The notes beneath the pieces were generated by a model. It saw only the letters and a list, made by a program, of their open reading frames with translations. It did no database searches and was not told the DNA's origin. Below, one piece after another: positions 1-52,665 of a DNA stretch of 64,000 nt (its first letter is position 1; each line of letters starts with the position of its first letter). The DNA is taken from contig CAVPBH010000017.1 of the NCBI GenBank assembly GCA_963701775.1, forward strand, positions 128,729-192,728, written 5' to 3'. Source of the DNA: an uncultured Chloroflexia bacterium. GTDB lineage: Bacteria; Chloroflexota; Anaerolineae; JAAYZQ01. The position numbers were made by a program, and so were the translations under genes.

Positions 1-262
1 AGATCTGCCGGCGCTGCGTGCTTCGCTCGGCCAGCCGACGCTCGACGCGCATGGAGAACCCATAGGATGGCCCGACCATAGGCGTAGTGCCCAACAGGGT
101 CGAAACCCTGCGCATGGCAGCGGCCTCAGCCCGGCAGGCGGGACAGGCCGCCATGTGCCGTTCCAGAGCGGACTCGTGCTCCGGAGCAAGCCGGCCGTCC
201 AGTGCCAGCGACACCCAAGAAGCTATCTTATCCCGTTCTTCACATCGTACCCTCTCACCCAT
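1..262 (-). CDS. anti-sigma factor, zf-HC2 type (N-terminal part; C-terminus runs off window start)
   Basis: Minus-strand ORF starting ATG at 262, 12 nt downstream of the sigma-factor stop. Translation is MGERVRCEERDKIASWVSLALDGRLAPEHESALERHMAACPACRAEAAAMRR. The HxxxCxxC motif is typical of zinc-finger anti-sigma factors paired with ECF sigmas. Confidence 0.6.
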   Translation of the reverse strand, partial: MGERVRCEERDKIASWVSLALDGRLAPEHESALERHMAACPACRAEAAAMRRVSTLLGTTPMVGPSYGFSMRVERRLAERSTQRRQI

Positions 263-274
263 CTTCCCCTCCCA

Positions 275-820
275 TCAGGCCACTTGAAGCAGCCCGGCCA
301 TCATCTGCCGCGCCCGGTGCAATCGCGATTTGATCGCGCTCTCGGTGGAGCCGGTGGTAGTCGCGATCTCTTCGTAGGACATGTCATACCAGTAGCGCAA
401 CACGACGGCTGCCCGGTAGTCCGGGGGCAACGTATCGAGTACCCTCCTCACCATTTCCTGCGCCTGTTTCCGATCCACTGCCTGCTCTGGCCTGTCTTCC
501 TCACTCGTCAGGTATTGGGGAGGGATCGTGTCGTCCAGCGGTAGCTGGGGCGCCCGCGCGTGGCGCCGCAGACGATCGATGCAGTAATGGGATGCGATAG
601 ACAGCAGCCAGTTGACAAACTTGCGATCGGGCTGATACGTCGCAAGCCTGGTATAGGCTCGCAGGAACGTCTCTTGCGCCGCATCTTCCGCATCTTCGGC
701 ACTCCCCAACATCCGATAAGCCAGGTTGTAAACCGGGCGCTCGTAAGCACGTACCAGTTGTCCAAAGGCGGCCTGGTCCCCTTGGATCGCCCTCTGTATC
801 CAGGTGCGTTCCTGGTCCAT
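275..820 (-). CDS. ECF (sigma-24/sigma-70 region 2+4) RNA polymerase sigma factor
   Basis: Translation shows region 2 (AAQETFLRAY) and region 4 (YEEIATTTGSTESAIKSRLHRAR). Start is placed at ATG 820, which is preceded by GGAGGAAGGG. The annotated ATG at 877 lacks an RBS. Confidence 0.85.
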   Translation of the reverse strand: MDQERTWIQRAIQGDQAAFGQLVRAYERPVYNLAYRMLGSAEDAEDAAQETFLRAYTRLATYQPDRKFVNWLLSIASHYCIDRLRRHARAPQLPLDDTIPPQYLTSEEDRPEQAVDRKQAQEMVRRVLDTLPPDYRAAVVLRYWYDMSYEEIATTTGSTESAIKSRLHRARQMMAGLLQVA

Positions 821-847
821 CCCTTCCTCCCCACAAGATCTATACGG

Positions 848-877
848 ATTATAGCGCCGGAGGTTGCCAGACTTCAA
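848..877 (-). promoter_or_regulatory. sigma-70-like promoter upstream of ECF sigma gene (TTGAAG-18-TATAAT)
   Basis: On the minus strand, TTGAAG (fwd 872-877) and TATAAT (fwd 848-853) are spaced 18 nt apart, about 30 nt upstream of the start codon. Confidence 0.35.
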
Positions 878-988
878 GTTTGGCCGGCGCTCTGTATTCC
901 GAGTACAATAGAATCCTGGGCAGCGCCGGACAGGGAGAAGACGGCCGTCTCAACACCGGTTAGCGGCAGGGCATGAGGAGGGGCCACG

Positions 989-1679
989 GTGGACGACAGA
1001 GCATTCAAACGCTCCTGGTATATCATCATCGAGGGCGCTATTGGCGTCGGCAAGACGACATTGGCCAGGATGCTCAGCGAGCACTTTCGAACAGGCTTGC
1101 TGCTGGAGGTGTTCGAGGAGAACCCCTTCCTGGCCCGGTTCTACGAATCGCGTGCCGCCTATGCCTTCCAGACCCAGATGTTCTTCCTGCTCAGCCGCTA
1201 CAGACAGCAGCAACGCGTTCCAGATCATGCTGCGGCAAGGCGCATTGATCTCTGACTATATGTTCAACAAGGACAGGCTCTTTGCCCAGTTGAACCTCGC
1301 CGGGGATGAGTGGGACATCTACCAGCAGATCCATACGGCACTGGCCGGCCAGATCGCTTCACCCGATCTGATTGTCTATCTCCAGGCGGATACCGAGGTC
1401 TTGATGGGACGGATAGCCCAACGCGACCGGCCCTATGAGCGGACGATGGACAGGGCATACCTGGACGATCTGCGCCTGGGCTACGAGGAGTTCTTCACAT
1501 CAAACCAGCCGGCGCCCGTCATGCTCGTGGATACCAATCACCTCAACTTTGTGACCCATCCCGAGGATTTCCAGTACATCGTCGAGCGCATCCGAGCAGT
1601 GCTCCGAGAAGGCGCGTTCCAGGAATTCTTGCCCGAGCTGCTTCCGGAGAAAGACGTAGATCGTAAGGATCAAGATTAG
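989..1679 (+). CDS. deoxynucleoside kinase (dAK/dGK family), apparent +1/-1 frameshift near 1215-1225
   Basis: The N-terminus has a P-loop (IIIEGAIGVGKTTLARML). It runs to FFLLSRYRQQQ, then the frame 1041-1679 continues with ALISDYMFNKDRLFA...YLQADTEVLMGRIAQRDRPYE, a classic dNK motif. An intact paralog lies at 45458-46123. Given the widespread indels elsewhere in this window, the frameshift may be a sequencing error. Confidence 0.7.
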
Positions 1680-2060
1680 AGTAAGTCTATTAGATAGTAG
1701 TCGTAGTAGGGGCTGGGGATAAGTGGATGACTTGGCTCATTTGCCGGTCATTGCCCCATATCTAGGGGCATGGCCGCTGGAGCATACGACGACTGGGCGA
1801 GAGCGGGTTTGCGGGCTGTGGATGAATGGGGGAGTTCCAGCCGCGAACTTTGAGGTTTTTCGTGTGGTGACGTAGCTGCAGTCTCAGGGAACGCGAATGG
1901 GTCGGATTCCGGCTCAGATATCCACACGACAAGAGGGTTATCCACAGGATTCGCGAAGTTATCCACAGTACAGGTGTGTTCTGTGGATCTGCCTTCCGTC
2001 AGTCGTGGACTGCCTGGCCACGCATCACCGAAGATTGCCGCCTTCTTCTGTGGATGAGAT
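1678..2060. promoter_or_regulatory. DnaA-box cluster with adjacent AT-rich stretch (candidate oriC / DnaA-titration or DnaA-regulated region)
   Basis: Two perfect TTATCCACA boxes at 1938-1946 and 1959-1967, 21 bp apart. 8/9 matches: ATATCCACA at 1918-1926, TCATCCACA (minus) at about 1817-1825 and 2049-2057. 7/9 matches at about 1982-1990 and 1723-1731. An AT-rich stretch at 1678-1715 reads gattagagtaagtctattagatagtagtcgtag. The region lies between convergent gene ends (dNK and sortase). Confidence 0.55.
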
Positions 2061-2858
2061 CTGCGGTAGCGCCACTACTATGACCCGGTGGGTGTTGCCC
2101 GGCCATTCGTAGGGCCAGCAGGTAACGAGTGTGAGCCGCTCTTCTCCGGCCGGCATGATCCACTGCGCATTCTTTTGGCGGACGCTGAGCGGCATCCCCG
2201 CCTCTTTCAGGATGTACTTCTCGGTGACGACGTAGGTGTAGGGCGTGTCGCCGGCGTAGAGCGTGATCTCATCGCCCGGTTGGAGCTCCACAACGTAGCG
2301 GAATACCTTGCCCTCGATGTTGTGGTGCCCTGATAGCACCACGTTCTCCCCGTGACCCGGCAGGGCCGAGTTCGTGTGCCATCCGGCCGCATTCTCGGGC
2401 ACGACCCAGACCGAGACCTGCACTCCCTTGCGATTTACCACCTCCCAACTCATCGGCACCACCTTGGCATCGAGATCGATGGCCGGGGCCACAATGCGTG
2501 AGGGTGGCCGGTCTGCGGCAGGCACCAGGGTCGGGTTGGGCGTGGGCGAAGGCAGCGTGAGGGCGCTTGCCCTACGCGTCGCAGTGGGGAGGGATTGGCC
2601 TGGTTCTGCCTCCCATTCGGGAAGTATTGCGGGCGTGGGTTTCTCTACCGGGCGCTCTGTGGCAATCACCGGTGGAGTGTATGTCCGGGTCGCGCGGGGA
2701 GAGGCCGTCTCGACGAGCACCACCGCGCCGGCATCGGTGACGATGGGTGTGCCTGAAGAGCGAATCCACGACCATACACCCCAGCCGAGGCCTGCCAAGA
2801 TCAACAGGCCCCCTACGGCGAGCATTGCGCGAGAAAGAATCGAGGAGCGTGCTGCCAT
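2025..2858 (-). CDS. class F-type sortase (transpeptidase)
   Basis: N-terminal TM (MAARSSILSRAMLAVGGLLILAGLGW), a proline-rich linker, and the catalytic TLVTC motif (ERLTLVTCWPYEW) with a conserved His (VLSGHHN). The alternative GTG start at 2906 gives a longer form. Confidence 0.8.
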   Translation of the reverse strand: MAARSSILSRAMLAVGGLLILAGLGWGVWSWIRSSGTPIVTDAGAVVLVETASPRATRTYTPPVIATERPVEKPTPAILPEWEAEPGQSLPTATRRASALTLPSPTPNPTLVPAADRPPSRIVAPAIDLDAKVVPMSWEVVNRKGVQVSVWVVPENAAGWHTNSALPGHGENVVLSGHHNIEGKVFRYVVELQPGDEITLYAGDTPYTYVVTEKYILKEAGMPLSVRQKNAQWIMPAGEERLTLVTCWPYEWPGNTHRVIVVALPQISSTEEGGNLR

Positions 2859-2991
2859 CCACCGAATCCTGACGAGGCCGGCATGAACCCGAAACGCGAC
2901 CGGCACTGGCCGGGTGCCTCACCCCTCCGGGCCGGGGCAGCCAAGGCCTCCTGCTTTCCGTAGGAGGCCTTGGATACCGAGTGCCCGGCTG

Positions 2992-3552
2992 CTACCCGCC
3001 GAGAGCCGAAATCCCGGCCGTCCCCAATCCAAAGATGGCGCCGACGACGAGGGAGAGGACGAGCGAGACTATCCAACCGATCACAACGGTGATGATCGCC
3101 TTGGTAGTGTCAAAGTCCATCGCCTCGCGGATGGCGATGACGCCGGCGATCAGCGATAGGATTGCTCCGGCCAGCGAGATGAGCCATCCCACACAGGGGA
3201 TGAAGCTAAAGATTCCCAGGAGGTTGGGCGCGTTGGCAAAGCCCAGCACGCGCATCATCTCGCGGATGTCGGTCGTTCCCTTGAAGAGAGTCGTGCCGAC
3301 AAAGTAGGTGATGACCGACCATCCAATCCAGCCGATCAGGATGGAGAAGACGATCAGCTGCATGATGAACCCGACCATCGCACTGCCGAATCCGTCTCCG
3401 GCCATCAGCACCTTGATGAATCCGCCGATGGCGGACATGAGGCTGACCACGACGACAATGATGGCCGCCTGCGTCATCGAGCTCTGATCCTCCGCTACCT
3501 CCCGGAAGACCGTGGGGTCCAGGCGGATGACTCGCATGATTCGATTGATCAC
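2992..3552 (-). CDS. Yip1-domain integral membrane protein
   Basis: Multi-TM protein. The start MINRIMRVIRLDPTVFREVAEDQ followed by 5 hydrophobic helices matches the YIP1 family architecture. Confidence 0.55.
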   Translation of the reverse strand: MINRIMRVIRLDPTVFREVAEDQSSMTQAAIIVVVVSLMSAIGGFIKVLMAGDGFGSAMVGFIMQLIVFSILIGWIGWSVITYFVGTTLFKGTTDIREMMRVLGFANAPNLLGIFSFIPCVGWLISLAGAILSLIAGVIAIREAMDFDTTKAIITVVIGWIVSLVLSLVVGAIFGLGTAGISALGG

Positions 3553-3615
3553 AATGCACCTCCATGTTTGTTGGATTTGTCTATCTATACGCCGGCCGCG
3601 GGATCGAGTTGCGCC

Positions 3616-4893
3616 CTAGCCGACCCTCTCAATCCGAGCCCCCAGCGCCTTCATCTTGGTCTCGATGTGCTCGTAGCCCCGGTCGATCTGTTGGATGTTG
3701 TGGATGACGCTCTCTCCTTCGGCACAGAGCGCGGCGATCAGCAGGGCCATGCCGGCACGGATATCCGGGCTTTGCAGGGTCTCTCCGTGCAGCGGCGACG
3801 GCCCGACGACGACGGCGCGGTGTGGGTCACAGAGGATGATTCGGGCGCCCATCGTGATGAGGCGGTCCACGAAGTAGAGGCGGCTGTCGTACATCTTTTC
3901 GTGGATCAAGAGTGTGCCGCGTGCCTGGCTCGCCACCACCAACGCGATGCTGAGCAGGTCGGTCGGAAAGCCGGGCCAGGGAGCGTCGTCGATCTTGGGT
4001 ACGGCCCCTCCCATGTCGTCCCGTATCTCCAGGGCCTGTCCGGCGGGCACGAACAGGTCGTCGCCCTGGATCTCGAAATCTATGCCCATCCGCGCATAGG
4101 TTGCGCGGATCATGCCCAGGTGCTCGGGCGCGGCGCCCAAGACCCGGATCTCGCCGCCCGTGACTGCGGCCAGACCGATGAAGCTGCCGACTTCCATAAA
4201 GTCGGGGCCGATGGTGAAATCGCCTCCGCCCAGGCCGTCGGCGCCCTGGATGCGCAGGACGTTGGAGCCGATGCCGTCGATGTGGGCTCCCATGCAGTTC
4301 AGCATGTGGCACAGCTCCTGGACGTGGGGCTCGCAGGCGGCGTTGCGGATCGTGGTCTGGCCGCGTGCCAGGCTGGCGGCCATGACGGCGTTCTCGGTCC
4401 CGGTCACACTCGCCTCGTCCAGCCAGATATCTGCCCCACGGAGGCCCTCCGAGCGCAGCTCGAGGCCCCCGTCCTGCTGGATGTCGGCTCCCAGGGCGGC
4501 GAGCGCCATCAAGTGGGTGTCGATCCGCCTGCGGCCGATCCTATCCCCGCCCGGCAGAGAGAGGCTTACCTGTCCTGCCCGCGCGAGGATCGGCCCCAAC
4601 ACGGTCAGTGAGCCTCGGATCTGGCCGGCCATCCCCGGATCGGGAGAGGTTGACGTGATGCGGTCTACGCGCACTGTTACCGTGTGGGGGTTCTGGCGTA
4701 CCACGCTGGCTCCCAGCTTTTCCAGCATGGAGAGCATGGTGCGGACGTCGCCGATGTTTGGCAGGTTGCGCAGGGTCACGGGCTGGTCCGTCAGCAGGGT
4801 GGCAGCCAGGATGGGCAGGGCCGCGTTCTTGTTTCCGCTGGGCACCACCGTGCCGCTGAGGGGTACCCCTCCCTGGATGACAAACTTGTCCAT
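3616..4893 (-). CDS. murA: UDP-N-acetylglucosamine 1-carboxyvinyltransferase
   Basis: 425 aa. Starts [34 protein letters not shown] and contains the ...LGA motif. Typical full-length MurA. Confidence 0.95.
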
Positions 4894-4923
4894 CGTTCCT
4901 CCTGTCTTTCTGACCTGACCGGC

Positions 4924-5721
4924 TCAGCGCGGCCAGGCCTGAGATGTGATGCGCACAGGGGCGCCGAGGCCGGCCCCCAGCTCTTTGGCGGCGTTTCCGT
5001 CGCGCACGGCGATCTCCAGGTGTCCGCCGGAGCCGATGTAGGCGAGGCGTGCTCCTATCTCCGCATCGCCGAAGGTGCTGCTCAGCCGATCGATCCGAGC
5101 GCCGGCGATCTCGATGGTGAGACGGTCAGGCAGGTCAGAAGGCCGGAAGCTCGTCACCACGTTGCCGAAGCGGTCTATGTGAAGCACCTCGCCGAGGAGC
5201 GACCCATCCGGCTGGGGTGCGGGCCCGGCGGCCGGCAGGCGGACTAGACTCTCCACCGGGATGGGCACTCCCATGACCAGTGGATCGACGCCGGCAGCCA
5301 GGTGTGCAGCCACAGGGGCAAAGATGTCCCGGCCGTGGAACGTGTGGCTGACGGCGCGCAGCCAGTAAGCCTGGTTTGTGAGATGGATTGCTCTGAGGGG
5401 AGGGTCCCGGTCAAGAGCCATGCTCAGGATGCCGTTGTCTGGGCCGATGTAGGTCGCCATCTGTGTCTGCACGAGCAGGGGGCGCCTGTGCCCGCCGACC
5501 CCCGGATCGACGACGGCCAGGTGGGTTGTACCCGGCGCAAAGAAAGGGGCGGCACAGGAGAGCAGGTAGGCCCCCTGCCGAACGGCCTGTGGGCGAACGT
5601 CGTGACTGATGTCGACCAGGATCGCATCTGGGCAGATCACGAGGATCACTCCCTTCATTGTCCCCACATAGCCGTCCGCCAGGCCAAAGTCGGTGGTCAA
5701 CGTAATCAAGGGTCGAGACAT
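4924..5721 (-). CDS. SAM hydroxide adenosyltransferase (DUF62; fluorinase/chlorinase-like SAM hydrolase family)
   Basis: Starts MSRPLITLTTDFGLADGYVGTMKGVI, a characteristic N-terminal motif. 265 aa, typical family length. Confidence 0.85.
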   Translation of the reverse strand: MSRPLITLTTDFGLADGYVGTMKGVILVICPDAILVDISHDVRPQAVRQGAYLLSCAAPFFAPGTTHLAVVDPGVGGHRRPLLVQTQMATYIGPDNGILSMALDRDPPLRAIHLTNQAYWLRAVSHTFHGRDIFAPVAAHLAAGVDPLVMGVPIPVESLVRLPAAGPAPQPDGSLLGEVLHIDRFGNVVTSFRPSDLPDRLTIEIAGARIDRLSSTFGDAEIGARLAYIGSGGHLEIAVRDGNAAKELGAGLGAPVRITSQAWPR

Positions 5722-5761
5722 AAGAACTCCATGGATATTGTATCTCAGGGCTGAGTGGGCG

Positions 5762-6511
5762 TCAATGCCTGGTATTCTTCTTCACAGGGCTGCCGTCGCC
5801 GAAGGTGTAGCCGACCTTCTTCACCCCTCCGGCCTTCAGGCTGGCCGTGCGGCCAGACACCACCAGCTCCAGGCTGTACCACTGCCCGGTGTTGATGGTT
5901 TCCGGGACAGCCGCCCGCGTGTAGAGAGTGCCTGCCAGCCTCTCGCCGATCACCCACTGGTTGAAGTCGTCCTGCAGGCCGGCGAAGCGGTAGTTGTCGG
6001 CGTCCCGATAGTCGAACACGAGGTACCCGTTGTGCGCGATGGCGCCCAGGCTCTGGGTTTGCACCTTGGCCCACACCTTGCCCGTCCGGAAGGTGGGCGT
6101 CCACAGGCTCACGGCATTGCCCAGCCCGCTGTAGGCTCGTTTCTCGACGGCCCAAGTGCCGCCGTTCGGGCTCCAGCCGTTGGCGTTGCCGTCGTTGAAG
6201 TCGTCGCCAACCAGGTCGCGGCCAGCAGGGATCTGGTAGACCTCGTATCCCGCGCCGGCGTAGGTCGTGACCCCAATGCCGTCGTCCTTCTTGACGAGAG
6301 TCCCGCCCCCGTCGTAGGTCAGCGTCGTAGTCTTCCCGGCGAAGGTCACCTCCTTCAGCCGGTTCTCCTCGTCCCAGGATTGCCCGTAGGTGACGCCGTT
6401 CTCCTTGCGCGTCGTCATGTTGCCGTTGGCGTCGTAGCCGAAGGCCTCGCCGTTGACCACCTTGGCGGCGTGTGCGTGGGCCGGATCGACGGTCAGCGTG
6501 CCTCCCGCCAT
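5762..6511 (-). CDS. RHS/YD-repeat protein fragment (YD repeats + truncated LamG/ConA-like domain)
   Basis: YD repeats: GYDANGNMTTRKENGVTYGQSWDEENRLKEVTF and TYDGGGTLVKKDDG. The C-terminal segment NGYLVFDYRDADNYRFAG...QWVIGERLAG...GYTFG is homologous to the N-terminus of the 7365-8780 ORF. Start placed at internal ATG 6511; the ORF is open upstream to 6739, overlapping the lipoprotein gene. Confidence 0.65.
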   Translation of the reverse strand: MAGGTLTVDPAHAHAAKVVNGEAFGYDANGNMTTRKENGVTYGQSWDEENRLKEVTFAGKTTTLTYDGGGTLVKKDDGIGVTTYAGAGYEVYQIPAGRDLVGDDFNDGNANGWSPNGGTWAVEKRAYSGLGNAVSLWTPTFRTGKVWAKVQTQSLGAIAHNGYLVFDYRDADNYRFAGLQDDFNQWVIGERLAGTLYTRAAVPETINTGQWYSLELVVSGRTASLKAGGVKKVGYTFGDGSPVKKNTRH

Positions 6512-52406: not shown

Positions 52407-52636
52407 CCTAGGCCACCTCCTATGCCGCTAGAGAGTCGGCGTTGCCAGATCTCAAGACCTGCCGTCCTTTGGCTGACAATTCGTATGCTGTGCATAGTAT
52501 ACCACGGAATTTGAAGAAGGGAAGACCCCAGTTTCGGGCACTTGGCATAGGGTAGACTCGACGAACGATCGGAAAACTGAGGAAGAATACCACGCATAGA
52601 TTAATAGAACATGAACGAGAGATTAAAAAACGTTCA

Positions 52637-52665
52637 TTTGACAAGCCTTGGGAGCTCCTGTAAAA
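52637..52665 (+). promoter_or_regulatory. hppA promoter (TTGACA-17-TAAAAT)
   Basis: Consensus -35 and near-consensus -10, about 40 nt upstream of ATG 52705. Confidence 0.5.

Follow-up and report, generated by a model that had tools for sequence, protein, structure and literature searches.

A probable dnaA-unlinked replication origin with a Bacillus-type unwinding module in an uncultured Anaerolineae bacterium

Origins of replication that depend on DnaA and yet lie away from the dnaA gene are familiar from Escherichia coli, whose oriC is situated between gidA and mioC and makes use of 13-mer repeats, IHF and low-affinity sites, and from Caulobacter, whose Cori is likewise unlinked to dnaA. Clusters of DnaA boxes outside origins also exist in model bacteria, and loci of the datA and DARS type act on the availability of DnaA or on its nucleotide state. 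Both kinds of locus come into question for a cluster of DnaA boxes, some 2 kb from the left end of the 64-kb stretch of DNA analysed here (contig CAVPBH010000017.1; hereafter the window), from an uncultured bacterium of the Anaerolineae (Chloroflexota). A first, sequence-only reading had offered a dnaA-unlinked origin or a datA/DARS-like reservoir for this cluster. The origin is now favoured and the reservoir disfavoured by an unwinding module joined to the boxes, by its conservation, by its occurrence between dnaA and dnaN elsewhere and by the local GC skew in relatives, and the segment 1650-1967 is in all likelihood the chromosomal oriC of this organism. It resembles E. coli oriC and Caulobacter Cori as a probable DnaA-dependent origin away from dnaA and dnaN amid unrelated flanking genes, here a deoxynucleoside kinase (dNK) gene and a sortase-domain gene.

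The closest described system is the basal unwinding system (BUS) of Bacillus subtilis incC, with which the window element shares tandem boxes directed toward a G+C spacer, in-phase 3'-GAT-5' trios and A+T-rich DNA (PMC6669920, PMC8287927). As published, a BUS comprises a DnaA box with up to 2 mismatches, an optional second tandem box with up to 4, and trios located 5' on the strand reading TGTGGATAA, separated from the box by a spacer of no more than 16 nt (peak 10-13 nt) and numbering at least three of the form 3'-NAN-5', with the consensus 3'-GAT-5' (PMC8287927). The 4-nt spacer is CGGG or TCGG in published rows of Deinococcus, Geobacter and Bacillus cereus, the last of which also carries overlapped tandem boxes, AATAGGTGT and ATAGGTGT (PMC8287927), and E. 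coli oriC is without a clear box-adjacent trio array (PMC6669920). Scores in this survey are 12-24 for Firmicutes and Deinococcus, and the entries for Chloroflexi are weak, including that of Anaerolinea thermophila UNI-1, based on DoriC, which consists of a 2-mismatch box in AAAAGGGGT, a 16-nt spacer and TAGCAGCATTAGCAT and scores 7 (PMC8287927). A search of the literature found no paper on Anaerolineae origins.

The box cluster and its unwinding module

DnaA boxes are clustered well above chance in the window. With up to one mismatch to TTATCCACA, 12 sites occur in the 64 kb compared to 4.3 +/- 2.2 in shuffled sequence (12 was reached by 0 of 100 shuffles), and six of these are packed into the 344 bp between 1714 and 2057; 500 first-order Markov simulations gave 0-3 boxes in their densest 400 bp. 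A two-mismatch search adds the boxes at 1722-1730 and 1982-1990, bringing the number within the 344 bp to eight (Table 1). Every box reported by the sequence-only reading, namely two perfect boxes 21 bp apart, three 8/9 boxes and at least two 7/9 boxes, was found again; it had overlooked the 8/9 box at 1714-1722 and the unwinding module at 1695-1730. The gene-free gap between convergent genes in which it had placed the whole cluster is real (1680-2024; 345 bp without convincing genes), except that the last box lies within the sortase coding region. Two small open reading frames in the gap, 1723-1875 on the plus strand and 1748-1966 on the minus strand, were rejected as genes, as they run across conserved boxes and the sequence separating these boxes shows no conservation. 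An RNA element, promoter or terminator was also dropped as a reading of the gap: the only Rfam signal in positions 1-6000 was a snoRNA match below threshold at 4174, and 1400-2400 showed neither a consensus promoter nor a consensus terminator.

Table 1. Features of the probable origin and its two flanking genes (window coordinates)
Feature	Position	Strand	Sequence (match)	Remarks
dNK gene	989-1679	+		Pfam dNK matches on both halves; 3' end abuts the unwinding element
Candidate AT-rich DNA-unwinding element	1650-1694			overlaps the last dNK codons and the stop codon (1677-1679)
DnaA-trio array	1695-1709	+	TAG TAG TCG TAG TAG	reads 3'-GAT GAT GCT GAT GAT-5'; 4 of 5 in-phase trios match the consensus
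G+C spacer	1710-1713		GGGC (3' to 5', CGGG)	between trios and proximal box
Proximal DnaA box	1714-1722	-	TTATCCCCA (8/9)	conserved in all orthologues
Distal DnaA box	1722-1730	-	TCATCCACT (7/9)	one base in common with the proximal box; 8-bp start-to-start spacing
Imperfect palindrome	1754-1768		CCCCATATCTAGGGG	copy of CCCCATATATGGGG; sole match with up to 3 mismatches in 64 kb
Middle DnaA box	1817-1825	-	TCATCCACA (8/9)	same orientation as the module boxes
First tandem DnaA box	1918-1926	+	ATATCCACA (8/9)	mean pairwise identity 0.87
Second tandem DnaA box	1938-1946	+	TTATCCACA (9/9)	20 bp after the first; mean pairwise identity 0.94
Third tandem DnaA box	1959-1967	+	TTATCCACA (9/9)	21 bp after the second; mean pairwise identity 1.00
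Weak DnaA box	1982-1990	-	AGATCCACA (7/9)	inverted repeat with the third tandem box
Peripheral DnaA box	2049-2057	-	TCATCCACA (8/9)	within the sortase coding sequence, at its 3' end
Sortase-domain gene	2025-2906	-		Pfam Sortase 3.8e-22; convergent with dNK

The A+T-rich flank noted earlier proved stronger than claimed. Duplex stability was computed from nearest-neighbour free energies; for lengths of 20, 30, 40 and 60 bp, the minimum in the window starts at 1677, 1672, 1663 and 1650, respectively (rank 1 of ~64,000 positions), in each case within 1650-1709. The 30-bp stretch at 1672 has 27% GC, a value undercut in only 0.016% of such stretches. This DNA sits directly beyond the trios, in the position expected for an unwinding element. 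Next to it in instability within the window comes the duplex at 52572-52640 (ATAGATTAATAGAACATGAACGAGAGATTAAAAAACG), located in an intergenic gap with no DnaA boxes nearby.

From position 1663, the plus strand presents A+T-rich DNA, the trios, GGGC, TGGGGATAA and (A)GTGGATGA, the two last corresponding to the proximal and distal boxes; in the 3'-to-5' format of the published BUS table this becomes AGTAGGTGA / AATAGGGGT, CGGG, GAT GAT GCT GAT GAT. The proximal box departs from the consensus at one position and the distal box at two, the trios lie on the plus strand 5' of both, and the first trio is 4 nt from the proximal and 12 nt from the distal box, within the published limit for the spacer and, in the latter case, within its published peak. 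Four consensus trios in a five-trio in-phase array were counted as a BUS array. The sequence TAGTAGNNNTAGTAG occurs once in the window, both strands counted. In order, orientation, spacer and one-base box overlap, the module matches the B. cereus, Geobacter and Deinococcus entries (PMC8287927). It is near-consensus and lies at a different kind of locus from the published A. thermophila UNI-1 module, which comes from the same phylum and class and was likewise assigned computationally. A distal set of boxes about 200 bp away further recalls the loop-acting distal subregion of B. subtilis. The window element differs from B. subtilis in that it is not between dnaA and dnaN, in the TCG that forms its third trio, and in distal boxes that form a fixed triplet at 20-21 bp and are accompanied by a class-specific palindrome. 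It departs from the published survey in that, of its two boxes, the proximal one agrees better with the consensus, whereas there the upstream box usually does (PMC8287927).

A significant cluster of boxes, an adjacent easily melted element and syntenic conservation of the elements, as looked for in an oriC, were all found, and by such sequence criteria the element would be a DnaA-dependent origin with a Bacillus-type BUS, unlinked to dnaA and of a kind already known. From these elements we infer DnaA binding, unwinding and initiation in vivo, along a path modelled on the B. subtilis BUS. Domain IV of DnaA would bind the tandem boxes at 1714-1730, to which the middle box (1817) and the phased boxes (1918-1967), ~190-240 bp off, would supply ATP-DnaA, probably via a DNA loop. 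ATP-DnaA would then oligomerise from the tandem boxes onto the plus-strand trios (1695-1709), and the stretching of this strand would open the unstable duplex at 1650-1694, where the helicase would be loaded.

The canonical dnaA-oriC-dnaN arrangement is absent from the window element. Homologues of DnaA, DnaN, RecF and GyrB were sought by a DnaA motif search and by tblastn, both with approximate E. coli DnaA and DnaN sequences and with metagenome dnaA, dnaN, recF and gyrB, and none was detected in the 64-kb window or in the related locus L002, which extends ~9 kb further to the left; the earlier statement that no dnaA or dnaN is nearby thus holds over this distance also. Similarly, no replication-protein Pfam family was encountered among the called genes of L203, L204 and L207.

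Conservation of the layout and a wider family of origins

Comparison with relatives had been proposed with the first reading, and it revealed the same layout, composed of the module, a single middle box and a triplet of boxes at 20-21-bp spacing, at the dNK/sortase junction of eight related Anaerolineae sequences. The best GTDB matches to the MurA encoded nearby come from Anaerolineae metagenome-assembled genomes at 88%, 78% and 71% identity and place the organism in this class. The layout is present in L002 (MurA 88% identical), L005 (71%, with a dNK fused to a MazG domain), L188 and L098 (both from the metagenome scan, the former with a MurA 86% identical), L203 and L204/L205 (reached via a dNK homologue) and L206 (95% identical in DNA). 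The sortase gene is syntenic in L002, L005, L098, L188, L203 and L204, and the layout lies next to it in L206 as well; it also adjoins dNK in every case in which the contig extends to that gene. Synteny is not universal, since L003 and L004 have neither the sortase gene nor the cluster at the corresponding position.

A seven-way alignment of the window with L002, L005, L098, L188, L203 and L204 gave mean pairwise identities of 0.81 for the trios, 0.79 for the box pair and 0.62 for the middle box, next to those of the tandem boxes (Table 1) and 0.32 for the DNA between elements. Such a pattern would be the footprint of a functional protein-binding array and is not one expected of a chance cluster or a relic. 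The GTTATCCACAG of the third tandem box is unchanged in all orthologues, and CTGTGGAT at the middle box is kept in the window, L002, L005, L098 and L206. L206 has a one-base difference in the proximal box and none in the trios, the middle box or the tandem triplet. The two outermost boxes fare differently: that at 1982-1990 is altered in L206 and absent in other relatives and is probably not a core part, and that at 2049-2057 is kept in L206 alone, being replaced by GGTGGAAGG in L002, so that its role in the origin is doubtful.

Variation within the trios follows a pattern of its own. The central base of the third trio is not A in at least 10 of 40 dnaA-dnaN-linked controls, and this trio is mostly TCG or TCT in other loci among the matches listed; L005 has five perfect TAG trios, and L005 and L204 have 4-5 consecutive TAGs. 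The TCG of the window accordingly reads as a common natural variant.

The positions common to the window, L002 and L005 (GTAG-N5-GTAG-N4-TGNGGAT-NN-GTGGA) were used as a pattern to scan a metagenome collection, where it matched at least 120 loci. The module consensus among the listed loci is aaTAGTAGTagTAGTAGGG.cTGTGGATAtGTGGAtAA, with GG.c at the spacer position, and among these matches the 30 bp upstream of the module are 75-92% A+T at positions that the pattern leaves unconstrained. The overlapped tandem boxes also recur in the consensus TGTGGATAtGTGGAtAA of the at least 120 loci. In at least 40 of the loci, dnaA lies ~200-300 bp beyond the boxes and/or dnaN lies beyond the trios, in many cases with recF and gyrB after it. 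These loci occupy the canonical position of an origin and serve as a positive control, by which the module motif marks real origins.

Other matches are unlinked to dnaA and occur in recurrent contexts. At least 18 of these loci carry dNK genes together with a conserved protein without a Pfam family, here called c4, and at least 18 others (L088, L099, L116-L201) are flanked by Peptidase_M1 on the trio side and by genes for an ArsR-type helix-turn-helix protein and a major facilitator superfamily transporter on the box side. By source name, the c4 homologues belong to Bellilinea sp., Anaerolineaceae bacterium and Chloroflexota bacterium, and the dNK homologues to Anaerolineae and Chloroflexota. 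In these unlinked loci, a TTATCCACAG-tTTTt.gcgag-TTATCCACAG pair lies 272-296 bp from the module with a third box ahead of it; the module-to-tandem-pair distance in the lineage of the window is 241 bp. Since other unlinked loci display this same full layout with tight geometry, the window element would seem to belong to a broad family of dnaA-unlinked Anaerolineae origins.

The c4 gene (~334 aa; L086-L196 and L207 10001-11014) comes directly after the tandem boxes and precedes a dNK gene, and a second dNK paralogue lies across the origin; the N-terminus of c4 (GS...DIDL) looks like a nucleotidyltransferase-like motif. The ArsR-type protein of the Peptidase_M1 context has a weak DUF5937 match.

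Two further features of these loci lie outside the boxes. The second and third tandem boxes are separated by 12 bp (1947-1958) that read GGATTCGCGAAG in the window and GtTTTt.gcgag in the consensus of at least 53 metagenome origins; the conservation of this spacer suggests constraint beyond the boxes. Among the matches listed, a 14-bp palindrome, CCCCATATATGGGG, occurs with up to 2 mismatches in 33 of 81 dnaA-unlinked origins (L107, L128, L175, L186, L196 and L201 among them) and in 0 of 38 dnaA-linked ones, mostly 213-226 bp from the module, and has no match in ~450 kb of flanking DNA. Its variants are mostly one-sided rather than compensatory, for which reason a hairpin was set aside and the palindrome is suggestive of a protein site. 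The sequence turned up in no paper of the literature collection searched.

It is possible, although tentative, that many Anaerolineae, including Anaerolineaceae, Bellilinea-like lineages and their relatives, make use of one origin design away from dnaA-dnaN, often flanked by dNK and furnished with the fixed palindrome. Were this the case, published dnaA-adjacent origin assignments for the class would be misplaced, and the palindrome could bind a lineage-specific origin regulator.

Skew, rival explanations and significance

Local GC skew was calculated from flanks of ~10 kb on either side of the element. It changes from -0.020 on the left to +0.058 on the right in L002, from -0.070 to +0.004 in L203, from -0.062 to +0.055 in L204 and from -0.012 to +0.033 in L207. 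The L207 sequence covers 21 kb of a 4.87-Mb single contig, and its cumulative minimum falls at the element even though the flanking genes are co-directional. All 8 of the dnaA-dnaN controls with enough flank switch from negative to positive, as do 17 of 20 loci overall (Wilcoxon p = 6e-5). The window itself has a skew of -0.045 in the 1.7 kb to the left and +0.0115 in the 62 kb to the right. The skew evidence is consistent with an origin and is not decisive. Gene-strand bias was judged uninformative as an origin signal: a crude gene call based on G+C at third codon positions is ~50/50 over the window, with the first 10 kb to the right of the element head-on to a rightward fork and a ratio of ~2:1 for the plus strand from 13.5 kb onward.

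Several observations weigh against an origin at this element. The cumulative skew minimum of the window is located at ~12-14 kb and not at 2 kb, the skew from 2 to 14 kb being -0.023, and minus-strand genes, head-on to a rightward fork, extend from sortase through the RHS cassettes (2-12.6 kb); in L207, where genes run one way through the element, one flank is likewise head-on for ~10 kb. The TCG trio leaves a run of two TAGs before it, short of the strict rule of at least three consecutive NAN trios. No parS-like site was found in the window within 3 mismatches. The dNK gene fails as a universal origin anchor in L202, a contig of 807 kb with no box cluster by its dNK homologue, and a second region of DnaA boxes and trios may exist next to dnaA elsewhere in the genome.

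The reservoir of the sequence-only reading would be a non-origin locus that titrates DnaA or alters its nucleotide state, as do E. coli datA and DARS and the DnaA-box clusters of B. subtilis, with which the window shares consensus boxes outside the dnaA region. A dense cluster far from dnaA and between convergent genes would suit such a role, as would a skew minimum away from the cluster, and yet the window element has a full unwinding module in which box pair, GC spacer, trios and least stable duplex are all present and conserved, a combination that does not fit a reservoir. An oriented box pair and trio array, with a GC spacer and an unwinding element, are not known from titration or reactivation sites. 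Origins located between dnaA and dnaN have an identical module, and L002, L203, L204 and L207 show a switch of local skew at the element. It is because oriented trios and the least stable duplex are joined to the boxes and kept in relatives that an origin is favoured, and a reservoir is very unlikely. A secondary, dormant or relic module, with the active origin beside dnaA elsewhere, is also improbable, if marginally easier to credit: DoriC places the oriC of A. thermophila UNI-1 beside dnaA, at genome positions ~420-460, and gene orientation does not switch at the window element, but the published A. thermophila and other Chloroflexi modules are weak, and the closed 4.87-Mb contig of L207 has its local skew minimum at the element. 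Nor does a relic agree with functional elements that keep 0.8-1.0 identity while spacers fall to 0.32, or with a geometry fixed across at least 53 metagenome loci.

The cluster could alternatively serve DnaA-dependent transcriptional control of its neighbours, for instance by coupling dNK salvage to the replication cycle, in the way that DnaA controls nrdAB in E. coli. The dNK gene does abut the element in eight orthologous sequences and in 18 of at least 120 metagenome origins. The element is, however, downstream of both convergent genes and without a consensus promoter, its trio array and unwinding element would have no role in promoter control, and the kinase genes of the dNK/c4 group, at a distance of 0.1-1.4 kb, are likewise directed toward the element, all of which makes this the least credible of the explanations and highly improbable.

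A dnaA-unlinked origin at 1650-1967 would be a well-supported origin for a Chloroflexota class that is widespread, for the most part uncultured and covered by weak published predictions, and published Anaerolineae origin assignments may be misplaced. A correct origin is needed for peak-to-trough growth estimates from metagenome coverage, for rotating or checking closed assemblies and for replicating vectors. As a high-G+C, dnaA-unlinked example that retains the Bacillus-type module near letter-for-letter, the element would support this module as ancestral, and the palindrome and the recurrent linkage to dNK are modest, testable clues to how initiation is regulated in particular lineages.

Flanking genes and neighbourhood

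The dNK gene of the window contains a +1 frameshift near 1226, where it reads GATCATG and the 95%-identical L206 reads GACATG; this represents a genuine pseudogene or else an assembly error of one base. L002, L188, L206 and P0001-P0003 carry the gene intact. Close dNK homologues are mostly fusions of ~345 aa with a MazG-type nucleoside triphosphate pyrophosphatase domain (P0014-P0120; L005 8776-9604), and the window, L002 and L206 have an unfused dNK of 229 aa. In L202, what follows the dNK homologue is a tRNA-like sequence on the other strand (11030-11110).

To the left of dNK are genes for an ECF sigma factor and a zf-HC2 anti-sigma factor, and to the right of sortase are Yip1, MurA and SAM hydroxide adenosyltransferase genes. 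Beyond these, the minus strand of the window between 5762 and 12555 encodes C-terminal fragments of RHS/YD-repeat proteins and an Ntox44 toxin domain with small unannotated open reading frames between them, an array that is read as orphan toxin/immunity cassettes. Neither L002 nor L204 has this array at the corresponding position, and in the window it coincides with the region where GC skew is negative. In Litorilinea/Caldilineaceae loci, gyrB is found near murA and aligns with GyrB queries in several separated pieces (L007 4929-8537; L008 3510-8423), which possibly reflects interruption by an intein.

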